Below are positions 15,931-54,600 of a stretch of 64,000 bases of DNA, one piece after another; positions within the stretch are counted from its first letter, which is position 1; each line of letters starts with the position of its first letter. Location of the stretch: IMG/VR virus record IMGVR_UViG_3300042473_001002, one strand, 5' to 3'. The translations under genes and the position numbers were made by a program. The notes under the pieces are model-generated. The model was not told the DNA's origin. It did not search any database and worked only from the letters and a program-made list of their open reading frames with translations. The stretch comes from a virus. Lineage: Duplodnaviria > Heunggongvirae > Uroviricota > Caudoviricetes > Crassvirales.

Positions 15931-16433
15931 TGGAAAGAATTAGTCCTATTACTGGGAATCCTGTTAGAAAATATACTAGAAAATCTGTTCCAGTTGAAAT
16001 TGCAGAAGTTGTTGAAAAAAAAGTACAAGTAGAAAAAAAAGAAGAATATGATGGTATTCTTAAAAAAGAAGATTTTATATTTTATAAAGATGTTTCTAGT
16101 ATAAGTGATTATGATTTTAAAATGGCTGTTATTAAAAGAAGTACGTATTCATTTTCTACTTTATATTTTAGTTATGGACCTACTGTTAATTGTCAAATGA
16201 TGACAGTTGGAGCTTTTGGACCTTTTTTACAAGTTGAGACTAAAATACTAGAACAACTTAAAGCTATAAAAGATAATTTTAAAAAAAATATACTTTTAGT
16301 AGATATAAGACACGAATATATGAAATATTTTAATGGAAAAATACCAAAAGATATGATTATAATGATTTCTCCATATGTATCAACAAATGGTAGTAAAATG
16401 AATATATGTTTAATTAATATGACAAAATTATAA
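15930..16433 (+). CDS. hypothetical protein
   Basis: A 167 aa ORF, start/stop-coupled (ATAATGG) within the cluster. Confidence 0.45.
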   Translation: MERISPITGNPVRKYTRKSVPVEIAEVVEKKVQVEKKEEYDGILKKEDFIFYKDVSSISDYDFKMAVIKRSTYSFSTLYFSYGPTVNCQMMTVGAFGPFLQVETKILEQLKAIKDNFKKNILLVDIRHEYMKYFNGKIPKDMIIMISPYVSTNGSKMNICLINMTKL

Positions 16434-16435
16434 AA

Positions 16436-17614: not shown

Positions 17615-17628
17615 TAAAAAGTATAAAA

Positions 17629-18441: not shown

Positions 18442-18462
18442 AATAATTAAAAAAAAATAAAA

Positions 18463-34394: not shown

Positions 34395-34437
34395 ATAGCC
34401 GTAGCGACCTTAATTGGTTACTACGGCTATTTTTTTT
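34395..34437. terminator. bidirectional rho-independent terminator at the convergence of the + and − modules
   Basis: A 10 bp GC-containing stem (atagccgtag…ctacggctat) with a 16 nt loop, a T7 run on the + strand and an A-rich (U-rich on −) flank upstream. Confidence 0.75.
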
Positions 34438-34457: not shown

Positions 34458-34949
34458 CTAATTATAAAGATTAGGTTCTTTGTTTTTAAATTCATTCCAC
34501 CATTTTTTATTATGAGTTTGTATTACAGGTTGATACTTTTTTCTAAGTAATTTTCTACAATTTCTACAATAATATGAAAATCCATCTACAGTTGTTTTAT
34601 CGTTATTAAATTCTCTAACAGATTTTGTAGTACAACAATTTATACATTTTTTAAGTCTAAATTCACTATCTATATCAGGATATACTATTCCGTTATAAAT
34701 TTGATAAATTATTGACTCTAAAAACTCTTCTTCATACCATTCATATCTTTTGTTTGAACTATGATATTTGTGAAATTCTCTTTCAAAATCTTGAGCATCT
34801 TCTCTATAATATGTTCCTATAATTTCTAATAATGGATTATGTCCTCTATAACTTTCAATTCTTTTATTCATTACAGCAGAATATCCAAATTTTATTACAG
34901 AATTACCTTCTCTACCAAAAACTCTAATTATATATAAATTATCTTTCAT
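34458..34949 (-). CDS. T5orf172/GIY-YIG-superfamily domain protein with a C-terminal zinc ribbon; probable homing endonuclease
   Basis: LYIIRVFGREGNSVIKFGYSAVMNKRIESY (T5orf172-like) and CINCCTTK…YYCRNCRK. Confidence 0.5.
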   Translation of the reverse strand: MKDNLYIIRVFGREGNSVIKFGYSAVMNKRIESYRGHNPLLEIIGTYYREDAQDFEREFHKYHSSNKRYEWYEEEFLESIIYQIYNGIVYPDIDSEFRLKKCINCCTTKSVREFNNDKTTVDGFSYYCRNCRKLLRKKYQPVIQTHNKKWWNEFKNKEPNLYN

Positions 34950-34958
34950 GTTTAAAAT

Positions 34959-37900
34959 TTATCGACCCCACCTTGAGTTAAGCCCATTATACATTTCTTC
35001 AGAAGTTACTTCTAATTTACTAATAACAGGAATTAATTTTTCAAATTTTCTTTTTATTTTTAATTCGTCTTTATTTTTACCAGATTCATATCTATCATTA
35101 ATTTCAGCCCAATTCCAAGGTAAAATATATTCAGCTACATCTAATGTTTGTTCAATAATTCTAAGTGACGGAATAGGACTTTTCGTAATTTTAGTAGCTT
35201 CACGAGGATCTCTAAATTGACTTAATTCTGATTCTAAACGTCTTGCTAAAAACGCAACTGTCCATAACCATTCATCATCTCCATCTCCTGCACCACCAGC
35301 CGCTAACATTCCAATTAATGGTAATATTGCTCCAGTTAAAGCTAATTCCATTACAGAACGTTTTATACCAGCTTTTTTATCATTTGATAATTTATTCCAA
35401 TTAGAACTTAATATATCAAATTTAAGTTGTCTTAATGCTGGATAAACTCCGTGTATTAAAAATCTAGCTGTACTTACATAAGAACCTTCTTCAGTAGTTC
35501 TTAATGCATTATTAAAATGAATATCATTTTCAGTTAAATTATCTTGATGTTTATAAAAAGATTGAGCACCTCTAAATCTAGCTACAGCTTGAGGTATTAA
35601 ATAACGTCTAAATAACATTATCATTTTACCCCACCAATGTCTATAAGCCTCAGGTTGTAAATTAGAATCATAATTACCCATTGTATCAAATATTTTCTTT
35701 TTTACAAATAATAATAATTGTTCTTTACCACCTTCATTAATTTTAGAATTTAAACTTCTAGTTGTATAAACAACTTTATCATTCATTCTAACAATACCTT
35801 TATCATCTTTAGCTAACATATCTAAAACTGATATTGCTTTATCTTCTTTTACAATATTACCATCTTTATCAATATAGTTATTATTAGCATCCATAACTTT
35901 AATAGATTCTAATGTAGCCAATACCATAACAGATTGAACATAATGTTCACCTCCAGAATGTAATATTTGTAAAGATTCAAAATTAATTGCTGTTTTAGCA
36001 ATAGTGTTTTTAATAAATTCTTGTTGTTGAACTGTAAATCCACCAAATGTATCAAACATTTGATTAACTTGATTTACAAATGATTGTTTAACTGGTCTAG
36101 AATAATCTCCAATAATATTTGCAAAATCTTTAGTATAAATTTCATGAGCTTTTTTAACAGAACCTTTAGCTAAATGATTACCTGCAACCCTTTCTAAAAA
36201 TATTTGAGCTTGAGCATTAAGAATATTTGCTGCTGCAGAAAATGTGTTTAAAGATAAACCTACAGAAGAAACCCATCCATTAGCTGTGCTAATAACTTTA
36301 TTAATATCTAATGGACCTAATTTACCATATGTAATATTAAATAAATCATAAATATTTTTTTCAATTAAATTATTAATCATTTGATACTCATTAGAATCAA
36401 TACCTCTTTTAGTAGATTCTTGTTCTCTTTTAGCAAATTTATTTAAAATAGATATTCCTCCTACAGTTTTATTATAATATTCTTTATTTTTAGCAACCAT
36501 TTTAATAGCTTCAACTTGTAATGAAATAGCTTGCTTTTCTTTATAATTTATACCATTAATTCTATTTAAACGATTAATTGTAAATAAGTCTAATGATTGT
36601 TGATCTGGACTAATATCACCTCTGTAATGAACTCTTAACATATTTACAGAATTACCTTTACTATCTAAACGTTGTTTAACATATCCAATATCATCAGGTC
36701 TAATTTCAGTTAAATCTTTAATTTTATCTTTAACAATACCTTTTAAATTACCTTCAATAGTTCTTTCTACATCAGATTTAGTTACAGAAGGTAAATTATA
36801 ATAATTAATACCAATAAAAGGTTGTATTAATGATTGAATACTATTAGTTTGAGAATCTGTAGTTTTAGTATCATTAATAAAATGATTAAGAACTTCTTTT
36901 TCAATTTTACTTAATTTAGATAAATCATTTTTCCATTTACTTGTAGGTACTAAAACACCGTCTTTAAGAGTAGTATTTTCTTTTTTCCATTTAGCAAATT
37001 TATCTTTAGCTTTAATATATTCAGCATCTTTAAAATTATTTTCAGAAGCTGTGTATTTAGCATTTTTGTCTGCCTTTAATTTTTGAAATTCTTCTTTAAA
37101 TTTAATAGAATATTCTCCTTTATAATAAGCTTTTCCAGTACTATCAAATTCTAATAAATTAGCATATAATTTAGTAGGTACACTAGTTCCTTTTTCTTTA
37201 ACTAAACTTTCAAATAATTTAGCATCTTTAAAATCACCCTCTCTAGTTTGCTCAATAGTTTTTTCTCTAGCTTGAGTTAATAAATTCATTGTTATACTAA
37301 CTAATCTAGAATTATTATTAATAGCATCCATAAATTTAACAGAAGCTGAAGATATGTCTGTACCAATTCCATTTAATAAAAATTCAATTTCTTTATCTAA
37401 ATCAATTTGAATTTCATCTTTAAATGTAGTATTCATTTGTTGAGCAACCCATTCAGTTTGACTAATATTATTTAAACCTCTTTGTTTAAATTCCTTACTT
37501 AATCTTTCTTTCCAATTATTTTCAACTTGAGGTAAATAATTAATATTATTTAATTGAGTTTTAAGAATATCTTTTAATTTACTATTGAGTCTTTTTTCTA
37601 ATAAATCATGTTTACCTGTTGCATCAGAAATACTTTTTTCTATTTCATCAACAAGTTCTTGACCAACTTCATCAATTTTATCTTGATTTAAAGATGTAAT
37701 TAAAGTTGAAACATCTTCAATTAAATCATAAGAAGACATATAACTTTTATATAATTCAATTATTTCTAAACCGTTAGCTTGAGTTAAATCTTCACCTTTA
37801 AGTCTAGTTTCTAATTGTTCAATAGTTGACAACATTGATTTAGTATAAACAGCTACACCTTTCCATTGATTAATACTATCAACTTTTTCAATTTCAGCAA

Positions 37901-40900
37901 TTAATTCTTTAATATGTTGTTCAAATTTAGCACCTTTAGATTCATTATTTTTTTTATATGATTTACTACGTTCTAATAAATTATCTAAATTATCTTTAGC
38001 TTTATTTAAAGTTTTTTCAAGTCTATTTTCAATTGTTTCAATTTTAGATCTAGAAGATACTATTTTATTAGCAAATAAAGTTCGTTGTAAATTAGTTCCT
38101 CTATAATCTCGTCTATCTTGTTGAACATAATCAATAATTTCTTCAATAAGATTATCAGTTTCTTTAGTTTTAGCTAATCCAAATAAACGTCTTAAAGACT
38201 CTATAAATTGTTTCCAATATGAAGTATTATTTTCTTTATCTAAACTCTTTAATTCATCTCTAAATGATTTATTTGCATATATTTCAGCTACAAATTCTTT
38301 TTCATTAGTAAAACCATATCTTGCTTTATCATCGTCATAAGTACCAGTTTCATCAAGTTGTTTTTGAACTTGTTTATTCCAATACTTTTCATACATTTCT
38401 TTAATTAATTTAGCAAATTCTTTTTCTTCAAATGTAATTGGATTTAATAATGCTTGTAATGTTTGAGCATGTGCTAATTCATGAATAAAAGACATAACTA
38501 CTTCATCAGTAGTAAAATTATTTAATCTATTTCTATTTACTTGAATTGTATTAGTTTCACTATTAATTTGCATAACAGTATCTTTATCTACTAATTGTTG
38601 TTCAGAAACAAATTGAAATTTAGCTCCAGTTCTACCAATCAATCTTCGAGCTTTTTCTAATAATTCAATACCTGTAGGAGATAAATTTTTATAATTATTA
38701 AGAATGTTTTCAAGAATTTCATCTACAGTAATTTTACCTTGTTGATTATTAAATAAAACTCTATTATTTTCAATAGAATAATTTGTTTCTTCAACAGCAG
38801 GAACTTCAGTATTTTTATTCCAATCTAATTCATTTTTTTTAGACCCTTTAAGATTGTTAAAATCTACACTTGGTATTTTTTGAAATGGTAATTCATCTCC
38901 ATCAAAACCTAATTCTCTATTTTTTTGAGCTATTTTATTAACTAATACAACTTCACTTCTAATTAAACTTCTAGGTTGTTTTTTAGCTACTTCTTTTAAT
39001 GCAGCTATTTTAGTATTAATTAAAGCTTGATTTTTTTCATAACCTTCTCTAAATTTTCTTATTTCTTTTTTATTAGATTTAAAACTTTTTTCAATAACAC
39101 CTAAATATTCTCCGTTTTCATCAAAAACTTCTTCATATTGATTTTCTTCATAATATAAATCATCAGGCATTGGTTCATAAATACTACCATCTTCGTGAAT
39201 ATAATAATTATTATAAGAAATATTTAAATACTCTTTTTTAATACTTTCAATACTTTCTGTTAAAGTTTCATTAGTTTGAGTTGGTTGAATACCTACTTGT
39301 CTATCATAAATTTTAACACTAACTGGAAAAGGAATATCATCTCTATTTTTTACAAAATCTCTATGTATAGCTAATTGATTATAATAATAATCCCAAGCTT
39401 CTTGCTCTGTATTAAAAATTTTAGAAGACAATACTTCATCTGTATTTGGATCAGTTTTTATTATTGAAAAAACTTTTTCTTTTTTACTATTTTTAATTTC
39501 AGGTTTAACTAATTTACCATATTTTTGGTCTAATATTTTATTAATACCATCGATAATTTTTTTAGTAGTATAAGGAATATCTTCATCATACTCAAGTCTA
39601 AAATTATTACCTGTTAATGCAATACCAAGTTCATTATGATGATGTGCTAAATCATCTACAATAGATGCTAAATTAGGTTGTACTGAATTTACATTAGATA
39701 AAGAAGGATATTTAGTGTAACTAACTCCAAGTAATTCAGATTTTTTATCTTTATTAACTTTTTCAGAAGCATCCCAAACACTACCACTATAAACATCTAT
39801 ATTAGATGCCCATAATATATCTTTAGATTGAGGATATATTTTAAATTTAATTTTACCTCCACCTCCTTCAAGATGACCAATAGTTTTATCAACTGGTTTA
39901 GTAAATGCAGAAATAGCAAATTTACCTCCAGCTTTTTTATTATCTTCTATATGAGATAATAAATTTTGCATCATAAGATTTACATCAAATGATGAATAAG
40001 CTCCTACAACAGAACTAAATTCTTGACCTCTTGAATAGATTTCTTCAGGATTATATTTAATATTGTTTACTTTTTTCCACTCTTCTATAATTTCTTTAGA
40101 TTGTTCATATTCTTTGTTTTTTTCTATAAAATTAGCAATATTATAATTGTCTTCATATTCAAGTATTTCTAAATCAGGATTTGTATTTTTATATAACATA
40201 GCCTCTTTTAAAGTTTTAAATTCTTTTCTTTTAAAAGTTTTTACATTTACTACCTCAAACCCTCTTTTATTGTTTATTTTAACATTACTTAAATCAACAT
40301 CTTCAACACTTTTAGCTAATTGACTGATATGGTTGCTTGCTTCTGCATAAGTTTTAAACTTCATATTATCAGGAGTAGTATATTCTACTTCATTACCAGG
40401 TAGTATAAGTTTACTATTAGAATAAGCTAATAAATCTGATAAATCTCCTAATGTCATATTATCAGGTAATTTATCAATATCAACTTCCTTCTGATTAATT
40501 AAAGAACGAATAAATTGTTTCATTTCTTTAAGTAATCTTTTAAGTAAAGATATTAATTTACCATCTTTAACATTATCAAGTTTCTCAGCAGTCATTAAAC
40601 CTAATAGTTCTACAATAGCTTCTTCTTGTTGTTCTTCTAAAGTATATTTAAAAGGGGTGTTTTTTTTATTTAAATGTTCTTTAGCTTTTTCTAAATCAAA
40701 AGAATTAAATATATCATCAGTACTATAATTTTCATTTTTATCAACTACTTTATAATATTTTGTATATTCATCTTGAATAATTTTATATGTTTCTTTTATT
40801 TCTTTAAATTGATAATCTTTTTTAATTCTATCTAATACTTCTTTACCTTTACCTGTTTCAAGTTCTTTAAGTAAGTTTTGGTATAAATTAGTTGAATCTT

Positions 40901-41630
40901 TTAATAAAACATCTTTTATTTTTTTAACAAATTCTTTACCTTCTTCTTGAGTTTTAAATTTTTTATTATAAAAGGTTTCACCATCTTCTACTTCTTTATC
41001 AAACAAATGTTTAACTTTATTTTGAGATTCTGTATCTTTTAATGACTTTAAATCTATAAAGTATTCTGGATTTTCTTTAGTTCCATAATTATTAAAATCA
41101 CTTTCTAAAAAAACTTCTAACTCTTTATGTGATTTTTTATTTTTAATAGCTCTAATAATAGGATGTCCTAATATTTCGTGAATAGGTGTGTCAAGTGTAG
41201 CATAAGCTAAGTTAACATAAGCTACGTTATTTTCAATTTTACCTTTATAATCTTTAGTTCTATCAGATTCAAATTTAACAGTCATACCAATTCTATCTGC
41301 AATTCTAGCAGATAAATCTCTAATGGTTTGTTCAGAAGCAATTATACCTTGATCTGAAACAGATTGAGTATTTTGGTAAAAAATACCTTTAGCATTATCT
41401 ATTTTCTTAAAAGCTTCTTTATTAGCAACAGCTTTATCATTTTCATTATAAAACAATTTACCTTCAATACCAAATCTTTCTACAGCATCTACAGTCCATT
41501 TTTTATTAAGTCTATTAAATACATTAACATCTAATATATTTAAAAATTTATCAATAGCCCCCTTAGTTCGTAAGGAGGCTTTACTTGATGCTTCTGCGGT
41601 TTTAAATTTTTGTTTATCTTTACAACTCAT
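34959..41630 (-). CDS. giant virion-associated protein (2223 aa) with an internal HExxH zincin-like motif
   Basis: A 6.7 kb uninterrupted ORF. FIHELAHAQT…E at residue ~1050 is coded at + 38470..38484. Coiled-coil-rich. Confidence 0.6.
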   Translation of the reverse strand: MSCKDKQKFKTAEASSKASLRTKGAIDKFLNILDVNVFNRLNKKWTVDAVERFGIEGKLFYNENDKAVANKEAFKKIDNAKGIFYQNTQSVSDQGIIASEQTIRDLSARIADRIGMTVKFESDRTKDYKGKIENNVAYVNLAYATLDTPIHEILGHPIIRAIKNKKSHKELEVFLESDFNNYGTKENPEYFIDLKSLKDTESQNKVKHLFDKEVEDGETFYNKKFKTQEEGKEFVKKIKDVLLKDSTNLYQNLLKELETGKGKEVLDRIKKDYQFKEIKETYKIIQDEYTKYYKVVDKNENYSTDDIFNSFDLEKAKEHLNKKNTPFKYTLEEQQEEAIVELLGLMTAEKLDNVKDGKLISLLKRLLKEMKQFIRSLINQKEVDIDKLPDNMTLGDLSDLLAYSNSKLILPGNEVEYTTPDNMKFKTYAEASNHISQLAKSVEDVDLSNVKINNKRGFEVVNVKTFKRKEFKTLKEAMLYKNTNPDLEILEYEDNYNIANFIEKNKEYEQSKEIIEEWKKVNNIKYNPEEIYSRGQEFSSVVGAYSSFDVNLMMQNLLSHIEDNKKAGGKFAISAFTKPVDKTIGHLEGGGGKIKFKIYPQSKDILWASNIDVYSGSVWDASEKVNKDKKSELLGVSYTKYPSLSNVNSVQPNLASIVDDLAHHHNELGIALTGNNFRLEYDEDIPYTTKKIIDGINKILDQKYGKLVKPEIKNSKKEKVFSIIKTDPNTDEVLSSKIFNTEQEAWDYYYNQLAIHRDFVKNRDDIPFPVSVKIYDRQVGIQPTQTNETLTESIESIKKEYLNISYNNYYIHEDGSIYEPMPDDLYYEENQYEEVFDENGEYLGVIEKSFKSNKKEIRKFREGYEKNQALINTKIAALKEVAKKQPRSLIRSEVVLVNKIAQKNRELGFDGDELPFQKIPSVDFNNLKGSKKNELDWNKNTEVPAVEETNYSIENNRVLFNNQQGKITVDEILENILNNYKNLSPTGIELLEKARRLIGRTGAKFQFVSEQQLVDKDTVMQINSETNTIQVNRNRLNNFTTDEVVMSFIHELAHAQTLQALLNPITFEEKEFAKLIKEMYEKYWNKQVQKQLDETGTYDDDKARYGFTNEKEFVAEIYANKSFRDELKSLDKENNTSYWKQFIESLRRLFGLAKTKETDNLIEEIIDYVQQDRRDYRGTNLQRTLFANKIVSSRSKIETIENRLEKTLNKAKDNLDNLLERSKSYKKNNESKGAKFEQHIKELIAEIEKVDSINQWKGVAVYTKSMLSTIEQLETRLKGEDLTQANGLEIIELYKSYMSSYDLIEDVSTLITSLNQDKIDEVGQELVDEIEKSISDATGKHDLLEKRLNSKLKDILKTQLNNINYLPQVENNWKERLSKEFKQRGLNNISQTEWVAQQMNTTFKDEIQIDLDKEIEFLLNGIGTDISSASVKFMDAINNNSRLVSITMNLLTQAREKTIEQTREGDFKDAKLFESLVKEKGTSVPTKLYANLLEFDSTGKAYYKGEYSIKFKEEFQKLKADKNAKYTASENNFKDAEYIKAKDKFAKWKKENTTLKDGVLVPTSKWKNDLSKLSKIEKEVLNHFINDTKTTDSQTNSIQSLIQPFIGINYYNLPSVTKSDVERTIEGNLKGIVKDKIKDLTEIRPDDIGYVKQRLDSKGNSVNMLRVHYRGDISPDQQSLDLFTINRLNRINGINYKEKQAISLQVEAIKMVAKNKEYYNKTVGGISILNKFAKREQESTKRGIDSNEYQMINNLIEKNIYDLFNITYGKLGPLDINKVISTANGWVSSVGLSLNTFSAAANILNAQAQIFLERVAGNHLAKGSVKKAHEIYTKDFANIIGDYSRPVKQSFVNQVNQMFDTFGGFTVQQQEFIKNTIAKTAINFESLQILHSGGEHYVQSVMVLATLESIKVMDANNNYIDKDGNIVKEDKAISVLDMLAKDDKGIVRMNDKVVYTTRSLNSKINEGGKEQLLLFVKKKIFDTMGNYDSNLQPEAYRHWWGKMIMLFRRYLIPQAVARFRGAQSFYKHQDNLTENDIHFNNALRTTEEGSYVSTARFLIHGVYPALRQLKFDILSSNWNKLSNDKKAGIKRSVMELALTGAILPLIGMLAAGGAGDGDDEWLWTVAFLARRLESELSQFRDPREATKITKSPIPSLRIIEQTLDVAEYILPWNWAEINDRYESGKNKDELKIKRKFEKLIPVISKLEVTSEEMYNGLNSRWGR

Positions 41631-41639
41631 ATTTTTTTA

Positions 41640-44600
41640 TTAAAATGGTACACACGTATCATCATTATCTTCATTTTGCCAATCATCTTCAACACTTTTC
41701 TTTAAAGGAATTAAATCAATATCTTCATTTACTTCATTTTTTACTGTAAAATAAGAATCCTTAATTTTAATAATTGTACCAGTAGGTAATTGTTTTCCAC
41801 CAAAAGTACCGTCTTTTTTTTGACCTTCTATTTTAGCAATAGCGTCATCTTCGTTATCAAATATATATTCAGTTTTAGGTTTAACTTCTAATTCTTCTGC
41901 TGTAGCACCAAATAAACTTAATTGATCACCTTGAGATTTACTTGGTAATGTATCAAATACAGGAGTTTTAGATTCATTCAAATTATTATCTTTTTTAATT
42001 ATAATATTTTCTCTATAAAATATATCTCTAGAAATAACAGCTTCATTATTTAATAATTCTATTTGTTTTTTATCAACAGATTTAGCTACTTCAGGATTGG
42101 TTTCAGTAATAGCTTTTAAATTAATACCATTAGTATCAAAATTTACAATTCTATTACCTTTTTTATCTCTAACATTAAGAGGTTTAATTTCAGAAAATTC
42201 ACTATTAATATTAGGAATAAATCTAGTATAAACACCTTGATAATTTGAATTATATCCAATTAATTTATAATAAATATCTAGATCATCGTTAGATTTTTTA
42301 ACTCTATAATAACCTACTTTTCCAGGTTTTTTAACTACAAAACCATTAATAGTTTTTAATTCTTTTTGAATTTGACCATCTGTTATATTTTTAACAAATT
42401 TTCTATTATCTAAATTAGATAAATAAAATTGATCTATAAAATTAACATCGTTATCTTCATTATAATTTTTATATTTAGTATCAGAATCTATAATATATCT
42501 ATTAATATTATTTCTACTAAACCATTGTGTAGGTATCATATTAAAAAATTGAGTAGATGTGTTATTAAATCCAGAAGTTAAATATGAATATTTAATAAGT
42601 TTATTTGCAAATTCTTCATTATCGTTTAATAAATCTAAAAATGAATTAATCATACTTTCTTCAAATTCTTTAGATTTTTTTCTATTATTTAGTCCAACAA
42701 ATTCAAAACTATCTCCAGGTTTAACAGTAATTTGTTCTGTTATAATATATGAATTATTATTTTTAAAAGTTTCAAACTCTTTAGGAAAATTTAAAATTAA
42801 ATCTCTCCTTTCTTTACTAGTTATTTTAAGTGGTTGAAAACCTGACATTATATAACTATAAAAAGTTTTACCTAATTGCTTACCTAATTCATTATCTAAT
42901 AAAATTTCATTATTAATATCTTTAGAAATTTCATTAAATGTATTTTGAATAGTTTCATTACCTTCTAAAAATAATATAGGATTAGATTTAACAATATCTA
43001 TAGATTTTAATATTACATTTTTATAATACTTACTAAACATACTTTCAGAACCATTTGGATTTGTAAATTTAGAATTAAAACCTAATATTAAGTTTCCTCT
43101 AAAATTATCTTTATCTTCTTCAGATAAATTATTATATTTATCTTCAGCATCTAAAATTGAATCTACTGCATTTTTAGCAATCATTAAAGAATTAATACTA
43201 CCACCAACTCCATTTACCATAAACTTAGAAGCATCAATATTAGTTTTAATAGCTTTAGATGCAGCTTGATATTGTAAAAAAGTATTAAACACATCCATTT
43301 GAAAACTTTCATCATTTTTAATAACATTTTCTCTTAAATCTTTTAATGATTTACTAAAAATATTAGTTTTATTAGTATTATCATAATTATCTTTTCCAAA
43401 TTTCTGTTTTATAAATTCATCAGAAGTGCTAATATTTTGATTATCTGAACTTTCATATTGTTCAGAAAATTCTACATATTCTTTAATAACTGGTTGGGCT
43501 AAAAAAGCATTTACATAAAATGGATGTACACCTTTACGAAGTAATAAATTACCTGTATTAGTTGTCATAGTTACCCAGTTACCTTCTGTGATATATGGAT
43601 CTTTAGCTATATCAACAAATGCATTAAGAATTGCAGATAATGAATTACTAATTTTAACAGATTTTAAAGTATTAACTTGTTCTTTAGAAAGATTTAATTC
43701 TTTAGCATAATAATCTAAATCAGATTGTGATAATTCTTGTGAATATTCTTGATCTAAATTAAGATTACTTTTAGGTACATTAAAATTAGTTATACTTAAA
43801 TTTGCTAAACTTCCTAATACATAATCCATTAATGCATTAGCTTGTTGACCTACACCAGCTTTACCAGCTAAAAAACTATATTTAACATCTATATCTTTTA
43901 ATTGATTAAATGTAGATAAGTTAGTTGTAGGTGCTACTTTAGCAATACTTCTAATATCATTTTTAATATAATCAAAATCTACAGGTGTCATTACTTCACC
44001 AATAACATTTTCATTAAGTAAAACAGATTTATATAATTCAATTAATCTATTTTGTAAAGCTGCTTTAGTTTGTTCTGAATCAGGTTTAGAATTGTCATAA
44101 TTTTCATATCTAAGTTTGGAAACCTTTGTAATTTCAGTTTCTTCTTTTATATAATTTAATAAAGGACTTTCTTTTTTAGTTTTTAAAATAATATCAACAA
44201 ATAAACTAATGTTATCTTTTAATAATAAATCTTCTTCATCTGTAATATCACTTATATCTAAATTTAAAAGACTTTCACTAAATTCATCAACATTAAAATC
44301 TGTATCATAATCAGGATTAATTTGATCAATTACCGCGTTAATATTATCAATTGTTTCTAATTTTGTTTTACCTCTTAAATTTTTATAAACATAATTTCTT
44401 AATTTTTTATTAATATTATATTGAGGTTTAAAACTTGGAAACATTAAATACATCTTGTCTATATCATAGTCACTGCCTGTCTTGGTAGTAATACCTGTAT
44501 AAGCTACAACAGTATCTCCATTTTCTTCAGGAAGAATACCTACTATTTCTAAAGCATCATTAGATGATAAACCTTGATTAGGAATTCTATATCCAACAAT

Positions 44601-47600
44601 ATTCTCTAATATTTTTCTATCAATAATACCATTTACAAATTCACCATTTTCATTAGTATAACCAAATAATTGTTCTGGTTTATATTTATGATAATCTGGA
44701 ATATATTTAGCAATAAAACTACCTGATATTAGTATTCCACCAGGTCTAATTATTTTCTTACCATTTTCAGATAATATAAATTTACCTTTTTCATCTCTAA
44801 GAAACTGTGGTTCATGTGTAGTTTTTAATGCTCTAGGACTCCATATAATAGATTGTGTTTTGGGACTATCTGAATATAAACCAAAGTTACTCATTTGAAT
44901 AAATGAGCCACCATTAGTTTTAATTTTAAGCATTCTTTTAGTTAAAATAGAACTAAATATATTTTGTAATTTGTCTTTAGCTTGAGCAACACCATAAATA
45001 CTAATTTCAGATTCTAAAGCGTCAATAATATTTTGTGAACCTCCTCTAGATTTTAATTCAGATACGATAGAATTATAGAAACCTTCAAGATTAGTTATAA
45101 CTCCATTAGAATCAACTCCAAATTCTTTTAATACTGATTCATATCCTAAATTAGATAATTCTCCAACTACATTAGCAATATTTTCAATTACTTGATTACC
45201 TGAAATACTTTCATTATCTAAAGTAAAATCTTTATCTAAATTAAAAGCAAGACCTTGAAATATATTCTTTTGAATTTGAGAACCTACTTCAGTATCATGC
45301 ATTGTTTTAATAGGTAGGTCTTGTTGAAGTTTCCATCCATTAGAAGGTATAGAAAATGGTTCAAATTGAAAATTATCTTTAAGTGAACCATCAATATTAT
45401 GAATTTTAATTGGTTTATTAGAACCTACTTTAATTGCGTCAAATGTAACTAATTCATCAATTTCTTGAGAAACCATTTGATTGTATATTTTTTCAAGACC
45501 ATTACCTTTACGTAATCTTGGTGATAAAACTGCTTGTGAATATTTTAAAAATATAGGAACTCCATCAACTACTTGAAAATAAACTCCTTTTAATGGTGGA
45601 GCTACAGCTTTTAATTCATTTAAAGTAAAAGGTTCATTATTATCTCCTATTAATTTATTATACGCAGATTCATACGTTGCATTCCATTTACCAATTGTTT
45701 GCATTAAATCTTTCCATCTATTAGGACTTATCCAAGCTTGAGCATCTGCAGAATTAATATCTTTGTATTTATTTCCTAAAGTTTCACCTAATAATTCAGT
45801 TATTTCAGGTAAAAATGGACTATCTATTTCAACACTTTCAATTGAAGCAATTGTATAATTTTTATTATCATTATTTAATCTTTGATATAGACCATCTGTA
45901 TATGTCGCAGGAACTCTTTTTTTATAATCTACTGCATTTTTATAATATGCAACATCTCCTGCAAACATTTTAGAATATTCAACATGAGATATTAAAGAAT
46001 TAATAAAGAAATCTGCAGATGCTTTTAAAGCATTATTAGAACCATAAGAACTCCATATTTTATCATCTAATTCTTTATTAACAATACCTTCTGAAGTTTC
46101 TTCAAATATTTTATTTTTAATTAAGTTATCTAAAGTTTCTTGAATACCATTTGATAATTCATTTGCAATATATGATTTAATATCAGATTCAAATTTTGAA
46201 TTTTTTAATGTACTAAGATAAGCATTACCATTTTCATCATATATATTTTTAAAATCTAAATTAGAATTTTTTAAAGTGTCAGTAATTTTATCAAAAGATA
46301 AAGATGGAAATAATTGTGATTTAAATGCATGACCTAATAACTGTTTATTACCCTCTACATCATATGCGTTGTAATCAGCTAAATTATTAAAGTAAGTTCT
46401 CTTTGAAGTTTTAGGATCAAAATGCATTCCTACACTACCTTTTCTATCTGTATGATAATATACTCTTAATTTATCAGCATTATTAGGATCTTTCATAAAC
46501 TCAAGTTCAAATTTCATCCTTTTATATTCAGCATCAAAATAATTAAATATTGTATTAATTACCTCTTCATTTACAACAATATCTCTATTACCAGTACCAT
46601 ATCTTGCATTAGATTTTAAATATCTATTAATTGATATTTCTAATTGAGTTCCTTTATCAGCAGGAGTAGTTGTTCTATAATAAGTTTTTCTATTAACTGT
46701 AAATCCTAATAATTTATTTATTGTATCAGAAATATATTCAGCTTTAGAAATATCTTTATTTGTTTTACCATCAATAGAATTACCTTCTTCTTGGGATGTA
46801 TTAAAAGTATAAATATCTAAATCATTAATACGTCTTTGAGATTCTTTAATTCTCTCTTGTTCTTGAACAGGTTGTGGTAAAAAATCATTAACTTGATAAG
46901 TATCATCTAAAGCTAATAAATATTTCATCCAATCCGAACCTTCGTTAAATTTAGAAACTTCATAATGTTTTAATAAAATATTTCTATCTTTTTTCCAAGA
47001 TTTGATAGTATTAGATAAATACGAAGGATATGAATATACCCATTTTTGTTTACCTGCTGTAAATACAGAAGCATCTGAACCTTCAGATATATAAAAAGAT
47101 TCTGCTTTAGCTAATTGTTTAAATAAATTTTGATCTGATAAAATATTATTGTAATTAGTATTTTTATTTTCAATTATATTTTTAACAAAAAAACTTAAAT
47201 CTGTAACAGCTTTATTAAATATTTTTTCAGATAATTCATTATCATTATTAATTAATTTTAAATCATCTATAAAATGTTGAAATCCTTTAGTAGTATTTTC
47301 TACACCAATATCTCTCAAAATATCAACAATTCTTTTAATATTGTCTTCTTGATTATATTTTATTTTATTTAAATTTAATTGAATTACTTTTAATTTATCT
47401 TTAGATTCTTTAGTAATTGTAGAACCTTCTTTTGTTTCAGTAACAAATCTAGATTTAAAATTTTTATTCCATTCATTAAAAATATCTGTTTCTTTTTTAC
47501 CAGTTTCAGATACATTTATATTTTTAAAAGTTTTAATTAAAGGTTTAATAGTTCTTACAATATTATTTTGATCTACAACAGTAACCCAATCAGATTCATT

Positions 47601-48683
47601 TGTAGATTCTTTATAACTATATTCAGAAGTATTAAAATTATTCATATCTAAACTAAAAGCTTGAACAAATTCATTTTTAATTTCTTCACTTAATTCAGCT
47701 TGAGATAATAATCTATAAAGTTCTTTAAAATAAGGTTTTTTATTTTCTAATTTTAAAACTTCAGATTTTAATATTTCAAATTTATCCTCTTGAACACCAT
47801 CTTTAACAATTGCTACTTGATTAGTTAAATACGGTAATAATGAAGAATATACCTCATCAAAAGATAAATAAACTGTATCATTTAAAAAATTATCTTTAGC
47901 TAAAGTATTAACAATTAAAGATAACCTTAATTTAACATTAGCTGAAATATTACCTTTAGTTGACATTTCATAAGATGCTCTACCAAATCCAGGATCTTTT
48001 TCATTTTCATTAATCTCAATATTAGCTAAATCACTATCTTCATTATCTTTATTAAATTTTTCAGAAGATTTAATTTTATATGTTTCTAAAGAATTAACTA
48101 CATTTTTAACAAGTTCATCTAAATTTTCATCTAATGCAATTTCTAATAAATCAGCAATATCTTCAAAATTATCATTACCACTATCTCTAAAAGTATCAAT
48201 TCTTTCATTTAATTTATCAATAATACTTTCTCTAATTGAAACAGATTCTGTATTTAAATTAATATTTTCAAAATCAATATTTAAATGATTTTTAAAGTAA
48301 TTGTTAACTAATACTTTAGTTATAGATTCAATTTGTTTATTATTAAATAATGATTTTAAAGAAGTTGTATTTTCAATAATTTCAACTTTATTCTTATCTT
48401 TATCTATATAATAATAGTTACCATTTTTTTCATTTTTAAAAAGTTTAGGTTCACCATTATCTTCAATACGAGATATACCAGGTTTATAACTATAATCTAC
48501 AGTTTTCATACTAGGTTCTCTATTAAAATCTTCAACCCAATCTCCAAAATTTTTAAGAAATTCAGAATCAGTCTTAAAATAAGAATGACGAGCTATTGCT
48601 AACTCCTCATTCCCATTATAAGCTTCTAATATATTATTATACAATAAGGACTCTTGTCCATTTACTACAAATTTACACGCCAT
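41640..48683 (-). CDS. giant virion protein (2347 aa) with a DxDxD motif; candidate crAss-like virion-packaged RNA polymerase
   Basis: AYTGITTKTGSDYDIDKMYLMFP, with DYDID at residues ~1405-1409 coded at + 44457..44471. One of three tandem giant genes. Confidence 0.55.
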   Translation of the reverse strand: MACKFVVNGQESLLYNNILEAYNGNEELAIARHSYFKTDSEFLKNFGDWVEDFNREPSMKTVDYSYKPGISRIEDNGEPKLFKNEKNGNYYYIDKDKNKVEIIENTTSLKSLFNNKQIESITKVLVNNYFKNHLNIDFENINLNTESVSIRESIIDKLNERIDTFRDSGNDNFEDIADLLEIALDENLDELVKNVVNSLETYKIKSSEKFNKDNEDSDLANIEINENEKDPGFGRASYEMSTKGNISANVKLRLSLIVNTLAKDNFLNDTVYLSFDEVYSSLLPYLTNQVAIVKDGVQEDKFEILKSEVLKLENKKPYFKELYRLLSQAELSEEIKNEFVQAFSLDMNNFNTSEYSYKESTNESDWVTVVDQNNIVRTIKPLIKTFKNINVSETGKKETDIFNEWNKNFKSRFVTETKEGSTITKESKDKLKVIQLNLNKIKYNQEDNIKRIVDILRDIGVENTTKGFQHFIDDLKLINNDNELSEKIFNKAVTDLSFFVKNIIENKNTNYNNILSDQNLFKQLAKAESFYISEGSDASVFTAGKQKWVYSYPSYLSNTIKSWKKDRNILLKHYEVSKFNEGSDWMKYLLALDDTYQVNDFLPQPVQEQERIKESQRRINDLDIYTFNTSQEEGNSIDGKTNKDISKAEYISDTINKLLGFTVNRKTYYRTTTPADKGTQLEISINRYLKSNARYGTGNRDIVVNEEVINTIFNYFDAEYKRMKFELEFMKDPNNADKLRVYYHTDRKGSVGMHFDPKTSKRTYFNNLADYNAYDVEGNKQLLGHAFKSQLFPSLSFDKITDTLKNSNLDFKNIYDENGNAYLSTLKNSKFESDIKSYIANELSNGIQETLDNLIKNKIFEETSEGIVNKELDDKIWSSYGSNNALKASADFFINSLISHVEYSKMFAGDVAYYKNAVDYKKRVPATYTDGLYQRLNNDNKNYTIASIESVEIDSPFLPEITELLGETLGNKYKDINSADAQAWISPNRWKDLMQTIGKWNATYESAYNKLIGDNNEPFTLNELKAVAPPLKGVYFQVVDGVPIFLKYSQAVLSPRLRKGNGLEKIYNQMVSQEIDELVTFDAIKVGSNKPIKIHNIDGSLKDNFQFEPFSIPSNGWKLQQDLPIKTMHDTEVGSQIQKNIFQGLAFNLDKDFTLDNESISGNQVIENIANVVGELSNLGYESVLKEFGVDSNGVITNLEGFYNSIVSELKSRGGSQNIIDALESEISIYGVAQAKDKLQNIFSSILTKRMLKIKTNGGSFIQMSNFGLYSDSPKTQSIIWSPRALKTTHEPQFLRDEKGKFILSENGKKIIRPGGILISGSFIAKYIPDYHKYKPEQLFGYTNENGEFVNGIIDRKILENIVGYRIPNQGLSSNDALEIVGILPEENGDTVVAYTGITTKTGSDYDIDKMYLMFPSFKPQYNINKKLRNYVYKNLRGKTKLETIDNINAVIDQINPDYDTDFNVDEFSESLLNLDISDITDEEDLLLKDNISLFVDIILKTKKESPLLNYIKEETEITKVSKLRYENYDNSKPDSEQTKAALQNRLIELYKSVLLNENVIGEVMTPVDFDYIKNDIRSIAKVAPTTNLSTFNQLKDIDVKYSFLAGKAGVGQQANALMDYVLGSLANLSITNFNVPKSNLNLDQEYSQELSQSDLDYYAKELNLSKEQVNTLKSVKISNSLSAILNAFVDIAKDPYITEGNWVTMTTNTGNLLLRKGVHPFYVNAFLAQPVIKEYVEFSEQYESSDNQNISTSDEFIKQKFGKDNYDNTNKTNIFSKSLKDLRENVIKNDESFQMDVFNTFLQYQAASKAIKTNIDASKFMVNGVGGSINSLMIAKNAVDSILDAEDKYNNLSEEDKDNFRGNLILGFNSKFTNPNGSESMFSKYYKNVILKSIDIVKSNPILFLEGNETIQNTFNEISKDINNEILLDNELGKQLGKTFYSYIMSGFQPLKITSKERRDLILNFPKEFETFKNNNSYIITEQITVKPGDSFEFVGLNNRKKSKEFEESMINSFLDLLNDNEEFANKLIKYSYLTSGFNNTSTQFFNMIPTQWFSRNNINRYIIDSDTKYKNYNEDNDVNFIDQFYLSNLDNRKFVKNITDGQIQKELKTINGFVVKKPGKVGYYRVKKSNDDLDIYYKLIGYNSNYQGVYTRFIPNINSEFSEIKPLNVRDKKGNRIVNFDTNGINLKAITETNPEVAKSVDKKQIELLNNEAVISRDIFYRENIIIKKDNNLNESKTPVFDTLPSKSQGDQLSLFGATAEELEVKPKTEYIFDNEDDAIAKIEGQKKDGTFGGKQLPTGTIIKIKDSYFTVKNEVNEDIDLIPLKKSVEDDWQNEDNDDTCVPF

Positions 48684-48685
48684 AA

Positions 48686-51600
48686 TTATTTACATATTTT
48701 TTTCCATTGTTCTGGATTACTTTGTTTCCAAGCTTCAAATTTAGCAATATCTCTTTCAGATACTAATTTATCTTCTTGATATTTTTTAATTAAACTATTA
48801 ATTAATCTTTGTTCTGTTGCTGGATTAACTACTTTTACAGTTTCAAATACTTCTTTTTGAGTTTCTTTAACTTCTGTATTTTGAGGTGTTCCAGGTATTT
48901 CTGACAAAGATACAAAATTTTCTTGAGAATTCCTAGTATTATTGGGTTTATTTTCAAATAAATCTTCAAATCCTGTATTTGTCGTAGTAACTTGTACACC
49001 TGCATCAGATACTTTAGGGTTAATTAAATTATTATATTTACTATTTAATAATAATCTAGTAGGGTGATTTTCAGCCCAAGCCATTATTTTACCTGTAATA
49101 GTTGACATAATTTGTTGTTTATTATTAACAACATATTTAACACCTTTATCATCTTCAATAACTTTAGCTCTACCTTCTTTAATTGCTAAATTTGCAAATA
49201 TTTTTCTTCTATCTGCAGAATCTTCTTTAAAGACTTCTTCACCATTAGAATTTAGTATTCTAGTTTTATCAATTGTATAAGTTTGAGTTTGTTTCCCTGT
49301 TGGTGTATAACTAATAGAAGTTCCAGTTACAGGTTGTGTAACAGTTGATATATTACCAAATAAATTTTCAAATCCAGTTCCTTCTGTTTTAACTTCAACT
49401 CCAGCATCAGATACTGTCGGTTGTTCTAATGCTTTTAGTTCTACATCTAATTCTGATTGTGCTTTGCTAATCTTAGCATCTATTTGAGATGTGTCTACAG
49501 AAGTATTTTTATTGTTTATTTTTTCTATGCCTTCATTATCATAATCAATTTCCCCTCTCTCAATTAAAACATATTTATCTCCTTGTAATTCTACAATAGC
49601 AGGTTTTATAGTTTGTATAGTTTTTGCTTTAGGATTAAATGCTGATATTGCTTCAAAAGTAGGTTCTATTCTTTTATCTGGATATTGTAAAGCCATTTTT
49701 ACAGCACTTGGATTTTTTGTGTCTATATACACAGCAAATCTATTATTAGCAATCGGTTCAAAAGCTAATATAGAAGCTCCTTCGACAAAAGAAGTTCTTT
49801 CAGAAGACTTATTAAAACTACCATCTTTATTTGCGGAAGATAAATATACTGAAACTTTAGAAGGGGTCTTAGCTGTAATTTTTTGAGGATTATTACTTTG
49901 TATTAATAAGTCGGTTTTTTGTTTTTCTAATTTTGTAACTTCAGCTTTTTTAGCTTCTATATCAGATTGAACATTATTTGTTTCTACAGGTTTAGTTTGA
50001 TTAGAAACTGTAATACCTGTATTTAAATAAATATTAGTATAACCTTGAAATGTTGGTTCATTAACAACAGCATTAGTAGATAATATATTATTATCAACTA
50101 AATATTTAAGATAATCTGCAGAATTAGATTTAAGATTTGTTTTAGTATTATCTGTTTCAAATTTAGGACCAATTTTAATTTGATGTCTTTTTTGATTAAT
50201 TAAAAAATCAATAATTTCATTTTTACTTTGTTCTATATTTTCAACAGTTGATTCTTTATTCCCAAATAATAAAACACCATTATCAATTTGCATTCTAGAT
50301 TTAATATTATCAGATTGATAAATTAATAAATCAATAATTTCATTTAATTTAATATCGTTTTTATTACCACCTATAATTGATAATTCAGCTTTAAAATTAT
50401 CTTCAATTAATTGTTTTAATTCTTCATTTATTTCAGATAAAGTAGTATCTAATGATTTAGCATTTGTTAATATTTCTTTATAAATATCATAAAGAATAGA
50501 TGCTTCATTTTCATTAATTTTTTTAATATTAAGTTTTAAAGGAAACATTTTACCATTAGCTTGTGGAATCATTAAATATATTTCACCTGCTGCATTTGGT
50601 TTAATTTTATCATTAATAAAATCACTAGTTTGTTCTGTTAATATATTTTGTAATTTACCAAATGAATTAACAACAAATAGATTTTCTCTAATATAATTTA
50701 AATCTTTAACTCCATCTAATTGAAGAATATTATTATTTGCTAATCTATTTTCATCAATTTTTAATATTCCTTTATATTGATCTTGGATAGTTGTAGATAT
50801 ATTTTCAATTAAAACACCATTAATTAAATTACTAATAATTTCCGTTCTTAATAATTCTGTAGCAGTATTAATATCACCTGTAGTTCTTCTAGTTTCAATT
50901 GGAGCTTTTACTTCATTTGTAAATAATATATTTATAGGTAAATAATCTATTAATAATTTAGGATTAGAAAAATCTTTATTATTGAAAGCATTTAAAGCTT
51001 CTAAAACTTTAGGATTTTTACCAGGAGTTTGATTAATTTCAAATTTAACTTCTTTACCAGATTTATTAACAGGTTCTCTTTCGTATTTTAAATATAAAGG
51101 AAATTGTTCAGTTATGAAAGTTAATGGTAATCCTGTATTTTTATCTGTACTAATTACTTTAACACCTAATCCACTATCTACTTCACTATTTTGAATACTA
51201 TTGAGCTCTTTTACTGTATTATTTTCAGCTTCTTGAGGAATAAGTTCATCTGTAATAATAGACCCTTCTGTAGCTGTTAAACCATCATAAGCTGTTACAT
51301 TATTAAAATCTTCATCTTCTTGTTTAGCTTCAGAAACTTCTTCAGCTTGTTTAATTTCTTCAACTTTAATAATTTCTGCTTTTTTCTCTTCAATTTTTTG
51401 TTGAATAATAGGATTTGTTTGCTTTTTACTTTCTTTAAATTTTTGTAATTTATTCCAAAATTCAATTTCTTTATTTAAAGATTCTTTTGAAAGTTTATCA
51501 TTAAGTGCTTTATTAATTCTTAATATTTTATCTTTTTCTTGAATTAATTCTTTTTTAGATTCTTCAATATTTTCAATAGCGTCATTTAATTCTTCTTGTA

Positions 51601-54600
51601 AAAAATATAATTCTTCACTATTATTTTCATCACTTTTTAAATAATCTTTAATAGTTTGTTCAAGTACAGATTTATAATTTTCAAGATAATCAATTACATT
51701 TTCAAGTCCTTCTATATTTTGATTAACATAAAATTGTTGAGTTTCTAACCTACTAATATCAAATCTATGTTCACCAAATCTTTCTTTATTTTTTTCAAGA
51801 TAGTTTATAATATCATCAATATTTTTAAAACCAACTTTATTTATTTGTTCTAATCTTGAATAAAGATAATTTAAATTCTGATTAATAGAAGTTAAATTTT
51901 TAATTAATTGAGTTTTTTCTGATTCTAATTTTTTAATTTCAGATTCTACTTTTTTAAGTTCATTTTCAGTTTCTCTTATTAATCTTTTTAAAACCCTATT
52001 CTTAGATTTTTTAGTAGTATTAGGTAAAGATTTTTTTAATAATTGTTTTGATTCAAGTAATTTAGTAATTCTATTATCAATTTCAATTAATTTATCAGAT
52101 AATTCTTTATTTTTATTTGCATATTTTTCAGCAATTTCAAAAACAATTTCTTCAAATTGACTTCTTTCATCAATAATTTTTTTAATAGAATTTTCAATAG
52201 AATCAATAACTCTATTTACATCATAATTACTAAAATTTGAATTTTTTACAATTTCAAGAACATTTTGAAGATTTTCTAAAGAACCATCATCTATAATACG
52301 TTGTTTTATATTATTTAAAATAGTTAACTCATCTTCTTTTTGAGATGTTGTTTTTTCAACATCATCTTTTTCAATATTTTCAACTTCTTCAATAGTTGTA
52401 GCTGTATTTATAGCTTGTATAATTTTATCATTTTTAGCTGCATTTTCAGGACTAGCTTCCTCTTTTATTTTCTTTTCAGCTTTAATTTTAGCATCTAATT
52501 GTTGATTAAGATATTCATTATTCCAAATTAAATCATTTGTAGTTTCATTAAAATCTTTTAATTTATCTTTTTGCTTTTTAATTTGTTCATTTAAATAATT
52601 TAATCTTGGATTATTTTGATATATTTCATTACCTGTTAAAAAAGCAAATCCATTTTCATCAACATCAATTTCTTTAATTTGTTTAGTTGCTTTTTCTACC
52701 TTTTTAACTGTTTTATCAGTTGGTTTGTAAAAAAATCCAGGAGAATTATAACCAATTTCTTTTAATATATTACTTTTTTCAGATTCTAATTTATCTAATT
52801 TTTCTTTAGCGTCATATTCTTCAGATCTTTCTGAAATAAAAGCATAACCTACACTATTTAAAAAATCAGCAATTTGAGTTTCTGTTGCTTCAGGATTATT
52901 TAATCTAATAATTGACTGAGACATATCTTTAAAAGATGCTAAATCTTTTTGTAATACTTTAGCTTTATCAATTACATTACTAATTCTTTCTTTATTTTCA
53001 GTATTTTGCTTAACTTGATCTGCAGATAATGTAGAACCATCTTCATTTTTTTCACTTACTGGAAATATTACTTTTAAATGTTCATTTAAAGCATCTAAAG
53101 TTACAACATCTTCTCCTATAAAATTAGTTATGATGTTAAATTCACCTTGTTTTTTTAAAGCTTCTAGTGTTTCAGTATCACCTTGCTCAATTGCTTTATC
53201 ATAAACTTCAGAAAGTACTCCTTGCAAATCTAAAGCTTTTTTAATTTTAGCTACATTTTCAGGTATAAATATTTTTTTACCATCAACTTCTTTATCTCTA
53301 GTTATAGTTTCTCCAGTTTCTGGATTTGTATATTCTTCAGTTTCATAAATTGGTGTATTATAAATATCTTGCAATGCTGTAGATTGACCATTAATTTTTT
53401 CTCTTAATCTTTCTGTATTTTTTCTATCCGCATTATCTTGTCTATATCCCTGAACTATAGATATAGGTGAACCTAAAACACCACCTAAAAATCCAGCAAC
53501 TTGACCTTCTGTAGTACCTAATGATTTAACAAAATCTTGACCAAATGTAATTAAATTAGCATCTTGAATAGCGTATTCACTAAGACTATTATTTATAGCT
53601 CTATTTGCATTTCTATGTTCTGTAGATGTTTGACCTACTTCTTCAGATCCTTCAGATAAAAAAGCTTTACCTGTTCTTTTTAAACCTTGTTTAACTGTAT
53701 TTTTAATAGTTTTATCCGCAGCTTTACCTGTAATTTTATCAATTAAAACTTTAGAAGGATTTTTACCAAACACTAATTTAGCTTGAATATAATTTGGAAC
53801 AGCTAATATACCTACATTTGTTAAAAATGTATTTCTCATAGCTCTACCTTTTTGTTCTAAAAATGCAGATTCTGCAAGTTCGTTTGCTACAATTTCAGGT
53901 AATTGTTTTCCTAATTTATTATATTCATCAATTGAAATTTCACCAGATCTTAATTTAATATCTAATTCTTCCGCTTTTTCTAAAGCTTTAGTTTGAAAAT
54001 CTTTAGAATTAATATCTAAATTAGATTTAAATTTATCTATAAATTCAGATTTTCTAGATTCAATACTATCTCCAACACCTTTAGCTTCTGCACCAGCTTC
54101 AAAATATGTATTAAATGCTGGTATCATATAACTGTCAATTTTACTTGTAGTTAATCCAGCATTAGTTAATGCTTTTCTAGCTACTTCAATATTTTTACCA
54201 TATCTTAATGCGGTAGCTTTAGTTATACCTCCAAATATTTTATTAGCACCACCTAAAGCTTTAAAAGCAGCACCTGGAGCCATAGCAGATATTAAATATC
54301 CTACACCATCGGCTCCTTCAGTAGCCCAAAATTCCCCAGAAGAAACTTTATCTAAAAAGTTTCCATTATCTACTGTGTCACTAACATATACAGGTAAATA
54401 TTCTCCTTGAATATATTTTTGAATATTTTCTGCAGCTTTTATAAAATCATTATTAAAAGCTGTTTCTAAAAAATCATGTTCATCTCTACCTGTAATTAAA
54501 TCAGATGTATTACCTGCAATACCTAATGCTGTACCACCAATTGCTCCAACAGTTTTTGCAATTTCAGTTCCAACTTTAAGACCTACTCTTCCAAAGAATT

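Follow-up and report, generated by a model that had tools for sequence, protein, structure and literature searches.

The window analysed here, a 64,000-nucleotide stretch of a crAss-like phage (IMG/VR record IMGVR_UViG_3300042473_001002), carries three adjoining giant open reading frames (ORFs) on its − strand, at 34959-41630 (2223 amino acids), 41640-48683 (2347 amino acids) and 48686-54895 (2069 amino acids). The trio occupies ~19.9 kb in all, with gaps of 9 and 2 nt, and each ORF starts with ATG. The coordinates and sizes reproduce exactly those of a first-pass annotation, which had described three consecutive − strand giants of about 20 kb and proposed that the middle one is a candidate virion-packaged RNA polymerase. 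Our analysis indicates that 41640-48683 very probably encodes a virion-packaged, single-chain, two-barrel DNA-dependent RNA polymerase (virion RNA polymerase, vRNAP) of an uncultured crAss-like phage, orthologous to gp66 of Cellulophaga phage phi14:2. Homology and fold, conserved residues at and near the catalytic site, synteny and the crassvirus setting, each demonstrated here, support this identification. The cysteines of the three giants follow a rule that extends to hundreds of homologs in several crassvirus families.

Homology and catalytic centre of the polymerase

A phmmer search of the middle giant against all PDB chains gave a single strong match, 6VR4 (E 1.6e-226; query residues 11-2111, chain residues 30-2040), the virion-packaged DNA-dependent RNA polymerase gp66 of phi14:2 (Steigviridae, Akihdevirus; bioRxiv 10.1101/2020.03.07.982082). 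BLASTP against RefSeq gp66 yielded 686 identities in 2233 positions (31%) from residue 1 onwards, and both proteins start with MACK. The RNA polymerase identity put forward by the first-pass annotation is supported by this full-length homology. In a global alignment with gp66, every landmark of the structural paper maps co-linearly and without rearrangement, including the two barrels, the connector, the bridge helix and the trigger loop. The window protein is 167 residues longer than gp66, with insertions in barrel 2, a variable linker (residues ~1419-1500) and a longer C-terminal tail ending in ...DDTCVPF. Its neighbours are also related to those of gp66: two blocks of the upstream giant align with gp67 (E 9e-38 and 4e-29), and the downstream giant matches gp65 over residues 959-2217 (E 5e-137) and in its first 55 residues. 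Among cultured phages phi14:2 is the best relative (31% identity), and gut crassviruses reach ~23% over the core. An exhaustive search found 2,045 cluster representatives of the gp66 family at E<=1e-3 and 399 at E<=1e-30.

The polymerase holds the peptide ...TKTGSDYDIDKMY..., in which DYDID (residues 1405-1409) corresponds to the catalytic motif. A bare DxDxD is at chance level in this protein, with 0.92 occurrences expected from its 7.3% Asp composition and at least one in 59% of shuffles. Two observations make DYDID informative: inside a co-linear alignment of 2,100 residues, each of its positions pairs with the experimentally validated 1361-DFDID-1365 of gp66, and GSDxDxDK shows no variation among 31 aligned sequences with identities as low as ~25%. 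The earlier assignment of the pattern as a metal-binding triad therefore stands on the alignment and the invariance. The activity of gp66 depends on every Asp of the motif, and its Asp-to-Ala mutants are inactive (bioRxiv 10.1101/2020.03.07.982082). Around the motif, 27 of 41 residues are identical to gp66, and position 4 is Ile, in keeping with the Ile or Val (not Gly) of the family signature. Among the best 150 representatives, the motif reads DFDID in 116, DYDID in 9, DFDVD in 4 and DMDID in 1.

A second DxDxD, DYDTD (residues 1458-1462; 44298-44312, − strand), lies 50 residues past the catalytic motif in the non-conserved linker, and we take it to be a chance motif. Matches of residues 1419-1497 of this linker to poxvirus F1L (phmmer, E ~0.005) were rejected as compositional.

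The residues invariant in the 31-sequence alignment are D980, Q982, K1032, K1047, K1085, Q1136, K1139, G1258, Q1263, G1268, R1366, P1368, Q1370, S1374, G1403, S1404, D1405, D1407, D1409, K1410, G1612, V1690, D1691, K1694 and G1718. They fall in the active-site motif, the YRIPNQG element, the upstream barrel (three lysines) and the bridge-helix and trigger-loop segments, the last two of which are helical in the predicted model. The first-pass annotation had suggested looking for a second barrel with conserved Lys or Arg; both features were found, with two double-psi beta-barrels joined in a single chain by a connector of ~140 residues and the invariant K1032, K1047 and K1085 lying in the upstream barrel (Table 1).

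Table 1. Features of the giant gene trio and its neighbours, with positions in the window
Feature	Position	Strand	Basis or remark
vRNAP, 2347 aa, very probable ortholog of phi14:2 gp66	41640-48683	−	homology; one unbroken intronless ORF, unlike many relatives
Segment matching gp66 cleft-blocking domain 196-233, aa 203-246	47946-48077	−	11/44 identical
First double-psi beta-barrel region, aa 1020-1114, upstream of connector	45342-45626	−	boundaries inferred; invariant K1032, K1047, K1085
Connector between barrels, aa 1115-1261 (gp66 1095-1238)	44901-45341	−	55/147 identical to gp66
Second double-psi beta-barrel region, aa 1262-1420	44424-44900	−	two insertions relative to gp66
YRIPNQG, aa 1365-1371, in motif-bearing barrel	44571-44591	−	invariant R1366, P1368, Q1370
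Catalytic Mg-binding triad DYDID, aa 1405-1409	44457-44471	−	aligns with gp66 1361-DFDID-1365; GSDxDxDK invariant
Bridge-helix equivalent, aa 1593-1623 (gp66 1529-1559)	43815-43907	−	invariant G1612 within GKAGVGQ
Trigger-loop equivalent, aa 1677-1715 (gp66 1598-1636)	43539-43655	−	21/39 identical; invariant V1690, D1691, K1694
Cys2068 codon, gp67-like protein (...WKKICK*)	48692-48694	−	
Cys3 codon, vRNAP (MACK...)	48675-48677	−	
Cys2344 codon, vRNAP (...DDTCVPF*)	41652-41654	−	
Cys3 codon, gp65-like protein (MSCK...)	41622-41624	−	
gp67-like giant virion protein, 2069 aa	48686-54895	−	gp67 homology; sole Cys is Cys2068
gp65-like "RNAP-associated" giant, 2223 aa	34959-41630	−	gp65 homology; sole Cys is Cys3
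HELAH of gp65-like protein, aa 1050-1054	38469-38483	−	aligns with zincin-like HEIMH of gp65
834-aa inserted module of gp65-like protein, aa 88-921	38868-41369	−	follows 87-residue N-terminal leader
Crassvirus tail ring protein 1, 237 aa	62740-63453	−	Pfam
Crassvirus muzzle protein, 1376 aa	58606-62736	−	Pfam
Crassvirus cargo protein 1, 564 aa, 0 Cys	56767-58461	−	Pfam
621-aa protein, 0 Cys, gene-order slot of cargo protein 2	54899-56764	−	synteny; no family match

Several points weigh against this identification. The segment matching the cleft-blocking domain is poorly conserved, so self-inhibition may differ from that of gp66, and the segment has Gly residues near the position of gp66 G218. 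Tyr at motif position 2, where gp66 has Phe, is a minority variant that recurs in 9 of 130 representatives. PHROGs and Pfam hold no model for the polymerase, and the assignment leans on one solved structure and its homologs. For the phage of the window, packaging and activity are predictions from homology. The motif of Neurospora crassa QDE-1 is DYDGD, likewise with Tyr at position 2, and because of this the substitution is unlikely to matter.

A rival reading, in which a former polymerase has become a structural or ejectosome component that no longer polymerises RNA and serves only to form or traverse a channel for DNA delivery, is very unlikely. Consistent with such a role are the ~1,600 residues of gp66 without known fold or function, a cysteine depletion as extreme as that of ejection proteins (see below) and the departure from the family consensus at motif position 2. 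However, none of the three Asp or of the 25 family-invariant residues near the active site has been lost, and the segments of the bridge helix and trigger loop rank with the most conserved, which would be unexpected without catalytic constraint; moreover, a channel role and polymerase activity are not mutually exclusive. An enzyme acting chiefly as an RNA-dependent RNA polymerase is extremely improbable. The RNA interference polymerases QDE-1 and plant RDR2 are the nearest cellular structural relatives; they share ~12% identity over 369 residues, have Gly rather than Ile at motif position 4, carry other flanking domains and are not packaged in virions. The likelihood of an N4-type polymerase, a T7-like single-subunit enzyme inside a giant protein, is negligible: coliphage N4 gp50 and Pseudomonas phage DEV gp71 (Schitoviridae) are likewise giant, cysteine-suppressed, capsid-carried polymerases that are ejected through the envelope for early genes (PMC11445570), yet they have an unrelated fold, other partner proteins and no cysteine at all, whereas the gp66 family retains two terminal ones, and no search detected similarity of our two-barrel protein to T7 or N4 polymerases in sequence or fold, so that this reading is already refuted. 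Thermus phage P23-45 gp96 differs from the window protein in being fused to a siphovirus tape-measure protein, and the two share ~11% identity.

Terminal cysteines of the giant proteins

The three giants contain 4 cysteines in 6,639 residues, and the two proteins in cargo positions (564 and 621 amino acids) contain none. At the mean cysteine content of the window's remaining 40 ORFs (1.30%), the giants should have 86 (P = 4e-32). In N4-like phages, suppression of cysteine is known to mark the proteins that are ejected across the periplasm (PMC11445570), and its occurrence in the giants supports, as an independent indication from sequence, that they too may be ejected. The position of the polymerase gene in the cargo and tail gene block points indirectly the same way.

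If the trio is chained in gene order, each of the four cysteines sits at the terminus adjoining the next protein (Table 1). The arrangement is the same in kind in phi14:2, where the partners stand in the same order: gp67 has Cys1797 of 1797 residues, gp66 only Cys3 and Cys2179 of 2180, and gp65 Cys3. The rule was then examined, besides the window, across loci L001-L033 and proteins P0001-P0468. Exactly one cysteine, within the last 10 residues, was found in 110 of 120 gp67-like homologs, and a cysteine in the first 8 residues in none of the 120. Among 104 complete, unfused polymerases, each representing a cluster at 50% identity, 103 have a cysteine in the first 8 residues, 99 have one in the last 10, and 91 have just those two. 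The first 8 residues likewise include a cysteine in 109 of 120 gp65-like or module-bearing matches. The rule was seen in ten IMG/VR loci, in the crAss001-like PhiCrAssBcn2 and in cr128_1 (Steigviridae; gp47-like gene on the opposite strand), in cr1_1 (Suoliviridae), in crAss002 (Intestiviridae) and in Flavobacterium phage FpV4. The counterparts in crAss001 are gp47, gp49 and gp50 (checked on PhiCrAssBcn2), a DFDxD giant with two partner giants and the same terminal-cysteine arrangement; they differ from the window trio in ~23% identity confined to the core, in the strand of the gp47-like gene and in a few internal cysteines. The RNAP-associated giants of crAss001 were found in virions by mass spectrometry and placed in the cargo zone of the capsid (PMC10172136).

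Natural gene fusions, which serve as controls, follow the same pattern. In gp67-polymerase fusions (FpV4 gp32, 4287 amino acids; P0072; P0446; P0456; P0465), the C-terminal cysteine alone is left and the partner retains its N-terminal one; in polymerases whose C-terminus is extended by a long segment, as a gp65-like fusion would give (P0407, P0412), the N-terminal cysteine alone is left. The 4,726-residue ORF of L010 (identical to P0466) and P0451 (4,714 residues) have no cysteine. In the L010 ORF, polymerase and gp65-like regions were mapped by BLASTP, and ~1,500 N-terminal residues gave no match to the gp67-like protein; its length and position point to a triple fusion. P0451 was classed by length and motif position only. 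Where a module of 834 amino acids, inserted in the gp65-like protein of the window, stands alone (L033, L029), it carries both terminal cysteines, between neighbours that end in and start with a cysteine; in L033 its two terminal cysteines were predicted before inspection and then found. The exceptions are crAss002 gp33, with six further cysteines, and the fused giant of L033, with three internal ones. Cys2140 of crAss002 gp33 lies near the polymerase/gp65 junction, which is a rough estimate (residues ~2300-2440) made without alignment mapping. The rule fits crAss002 gp33 (L024 10788-23525) only with a start at Met33 (MSCTPSN...), 32 codons after the annotated start, which is probably placed too early. 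Together, these proteins obey a simple grammar: a C-terminal cysteine alone in the first link, one at each end of the middle links, an N-terminal one alone in the last link, and none at nearly all fused junctions.

We tentatively propose, as a possibility somewhat less likely than not, that the giants may be joined head-to-tail by inter-chain disulfides between single cysteines within ~8 residues of adjoining termini, in a chain of the gp67-like protein, the vRNAP, the gp65-like protein and, in some lineages, the extra module protein. Pairing of the gp67 C-terminus with the gp66 N-terminus and of the gp66 C-terminus with the gp65 N-terminus would be the simplest reading of the grammar, and the variants that keep a single pair point to each pairing independently. 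The rule itself is established by the counts above; from it we infer the disulfide chemistry and a role in ejection. Inter-subunit disulfides are present in crAss001 virions, in tail and portal-vertex proteins (PMC10172136). The terminal cysteines may possibly have other thiol roles instead, such as metal bridging, a packaging or cleavage/recognition signal, or portal anchoring. A nucleotide constraint at gene junctions was rejected as their cause, as the pattern persists with the gp67-like gene on the opposite strand (crAss001-like phages, cr128_1) and across intervening unrelated cysteine-rich genes (L027, L018, L033). Lipoprotein-type lipidation of the N-terminal cysteine was also rejected, there being no signal peptide or lipobox.

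Polymerases ending in ...DTCVPF pair with M[SN]C[KN]DK.KF partners in 5 of 5 cases, compared with 1 of 9 for the others (Fisher p = 0.003), and this pairing (41640-41663 with 41610-41630 in the window; L002, L030, L031, L032) holds at only 29% polymerase identity. We did not count this co-variation as evidence of contact, because the two termini are encoded ~10 nt apart and linkage can explain it. The terminal cysteines are unmentioned in the phi14:2 preprint (0 occurrences), the crAss001 atlas, Yutin et al. 2021 and full-text searches, whose coverage is incomplete, so that an earlier description is possible.

Gene variants, partner proteins and surrounding genes

The polymerase gene of the window is intact and without an intron, while many relatives have theirs split within the codons of the catalytic motif by group I introns, at two sites 6 nt apart. 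In L002 (14092-15050) the intron lies at GSD|FDIDKMY and includes a LAGLIDADG endonuclease; in L027 (13226-13476) it lies at GSDFD|IDKMY and has no ORF (RF00028, 74.7 bits). Of the 82 homologs, about 24 consist of an exon-1 ORF with ...GSDFD or ...KISLFDPV at its end. Introns and disruptions inside the DxDxD motif of crassvirus RNA polymerase genes are known already (PMC7886860).

The gp65-like protein is 800 amino acids longer than phi14:2 gp65 because of the inserted 834-residue module, which is missing from the closest relatives (P0204-P0206, 71-83% identical). The module is 50-57% identical to one in >100 other giant cysteine-poor proteins, where it occurs at varied chain positions or as a separate protein, and module-bearing proteins often add ART-PolyVal, AAA_33, RNase H, AlkB or NADAR domains. 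Its invariant HEILGHP was rejected as a second zincin motif, having HExxxH rather than HExxH spacing. The AlphaFold2 (AF2) model of the module is poor (pLDDT 49, pTM 0.27), and the PDB holds no sequence relative of the gp65-like or gp67-like protein. PHROGs and Pfam scans assigned the three giants to no usable family; weak matches to DUF5049, Spo0A_C, YjbF and SprT-like families fell below threshold and were ignored.

Extra enzymatic domains also occur in homologs of the polymerase and gp65-like proteins: NADAR (P0004, P0012, P0013, P0067, P0074), PF18760 (P0018), RecD-like helicase (P0050, 3046 amino acids), RNase H (P0248) and AlkB (P0291). These homologs retain the two-terminal-cysteine pattern. 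Their architecture suggests that the cargo chain may also deliver variable effector domains into the host.

Beyond the giants, the window contains crassvirus-specific tail and cargo families (muzzle, ring proteins, cargo protein 1; PF25731, 4e-198; PF25729, 9e-15; PF24228, 1e-57; PF25725, 5e-21) in the order of phi14:2 g071 through g065; together with the gp66 homology, they agree with the crAss-like lineage suggested by the first-pass annotation. The set of DNA polymerase (phrog_1252), DnaB-like helicase (phrog_19) and primase (phrog_12622) that it had listed was recovered in a + strand replication and nucleotide-metabolism block at 74-34386, opposite in direction to the structural block. The + strand block also encodes a Sak4-like protein, exonuclease VIII, both ribonucleotide reductase subunits, an SNF2-type helicase (Helicase_C/ResIII protein) and ThyA. 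By analogy, the + strand block would correspond to the early, gp66-transcribed module of phi14:2. The genes for TerL, the major capsid protein and the portal lie outside the 64-kb window.

The G+C content across the window is 21-30%, and GC skew shows a clean strand switch at ~34.4 kb. The phage genome, of ~101.5 kb and 24% G+C, is known only from metagenomes; megablast against the phage collection gave no match for the window, so the phage is not a sequenced isolate. An identical polymerase protein is already present in JGI, ENA, Logan and NCBI metagenome data, on a 101.5-kb contig, labelled "hypothetical protein". The host is presumably a member of the Bacteroidota, judged solely from the relatives, all of which are Bacteroidota phages; the Bacteroidota promoter consensus is not enriched in the window (1 match against 5.2 expected). 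The 64-kb window has neither tRNA genes nor Rfam families at gathering score.

A small cysteine-rich ORF (34458-34949, − strand; 163 amino acids, 5 Cys; weak Lar-like match) ends the minus-strand operon directly behind the gp65-like gene, and a similar ORF (MKHNLYII..., 7 Cys) comes after the gp65-like gene in the distant relative L030 (18567-19022). A terminator-like hairpin is located at 34397-34409. Within the early block, + strand 14998-22178 holds a cluster of ATP-grasp-like, GATase/peptidase C26, phiEco32-type COOH-NH2 ligase, GATase_6 and amidoligase genes, which may form a nucleotide, DNA or peptide modification pathway.

Cargo ejection in crassviruses

Virion packaging, ejection, early-gene specificity, rifampicin resistance and self-inhibition by the cleft-blocking domain are known from experiments on phi14:2 and crAss001 and would by analogy apply to the vRNAP of the window. 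The polymerase would be made late and enter the capsid along with its gp67-like and gp65-like partners and the smaller cargo proteins, to be pushed, at least partly unfolded, via the tail into the host before or with the DNA. There it would refold and transcribe the early genes, presumably the + strand block, without the host polymerase. If the giants are disulfide-linked as proposed, they would form a pseudo-polyprotein of ~760 kDa, whose branch points, a few residues long, would let the whole chain pass down the tail as a single unbroken strand with order and stoichiometry fixed, and the reducing host cytoplasm would then split it into its parts. Such a chain would be a non-peptide counterpart of the polyprotein fusions in other crassviruses.

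The polymerase identification gives a function to database entries labelled as hypothetical proteins and extends the gp66 family to a low-G+C environmental lineage with ~100-kb genomes. It is ordinary for this phage group, and the terminal-cysteine grammar outweighs it in importance. For annotators, the grammar is a marker of gene starts, chain order and fused versus split architectures. How megadaltons of cargo are stored, ordered and ejected in crassviruses is an open problem (PMC10172136), and the grammar makes cargo ordering directly testable on the cultured phages phi14:2, crAss001 and FpV4.

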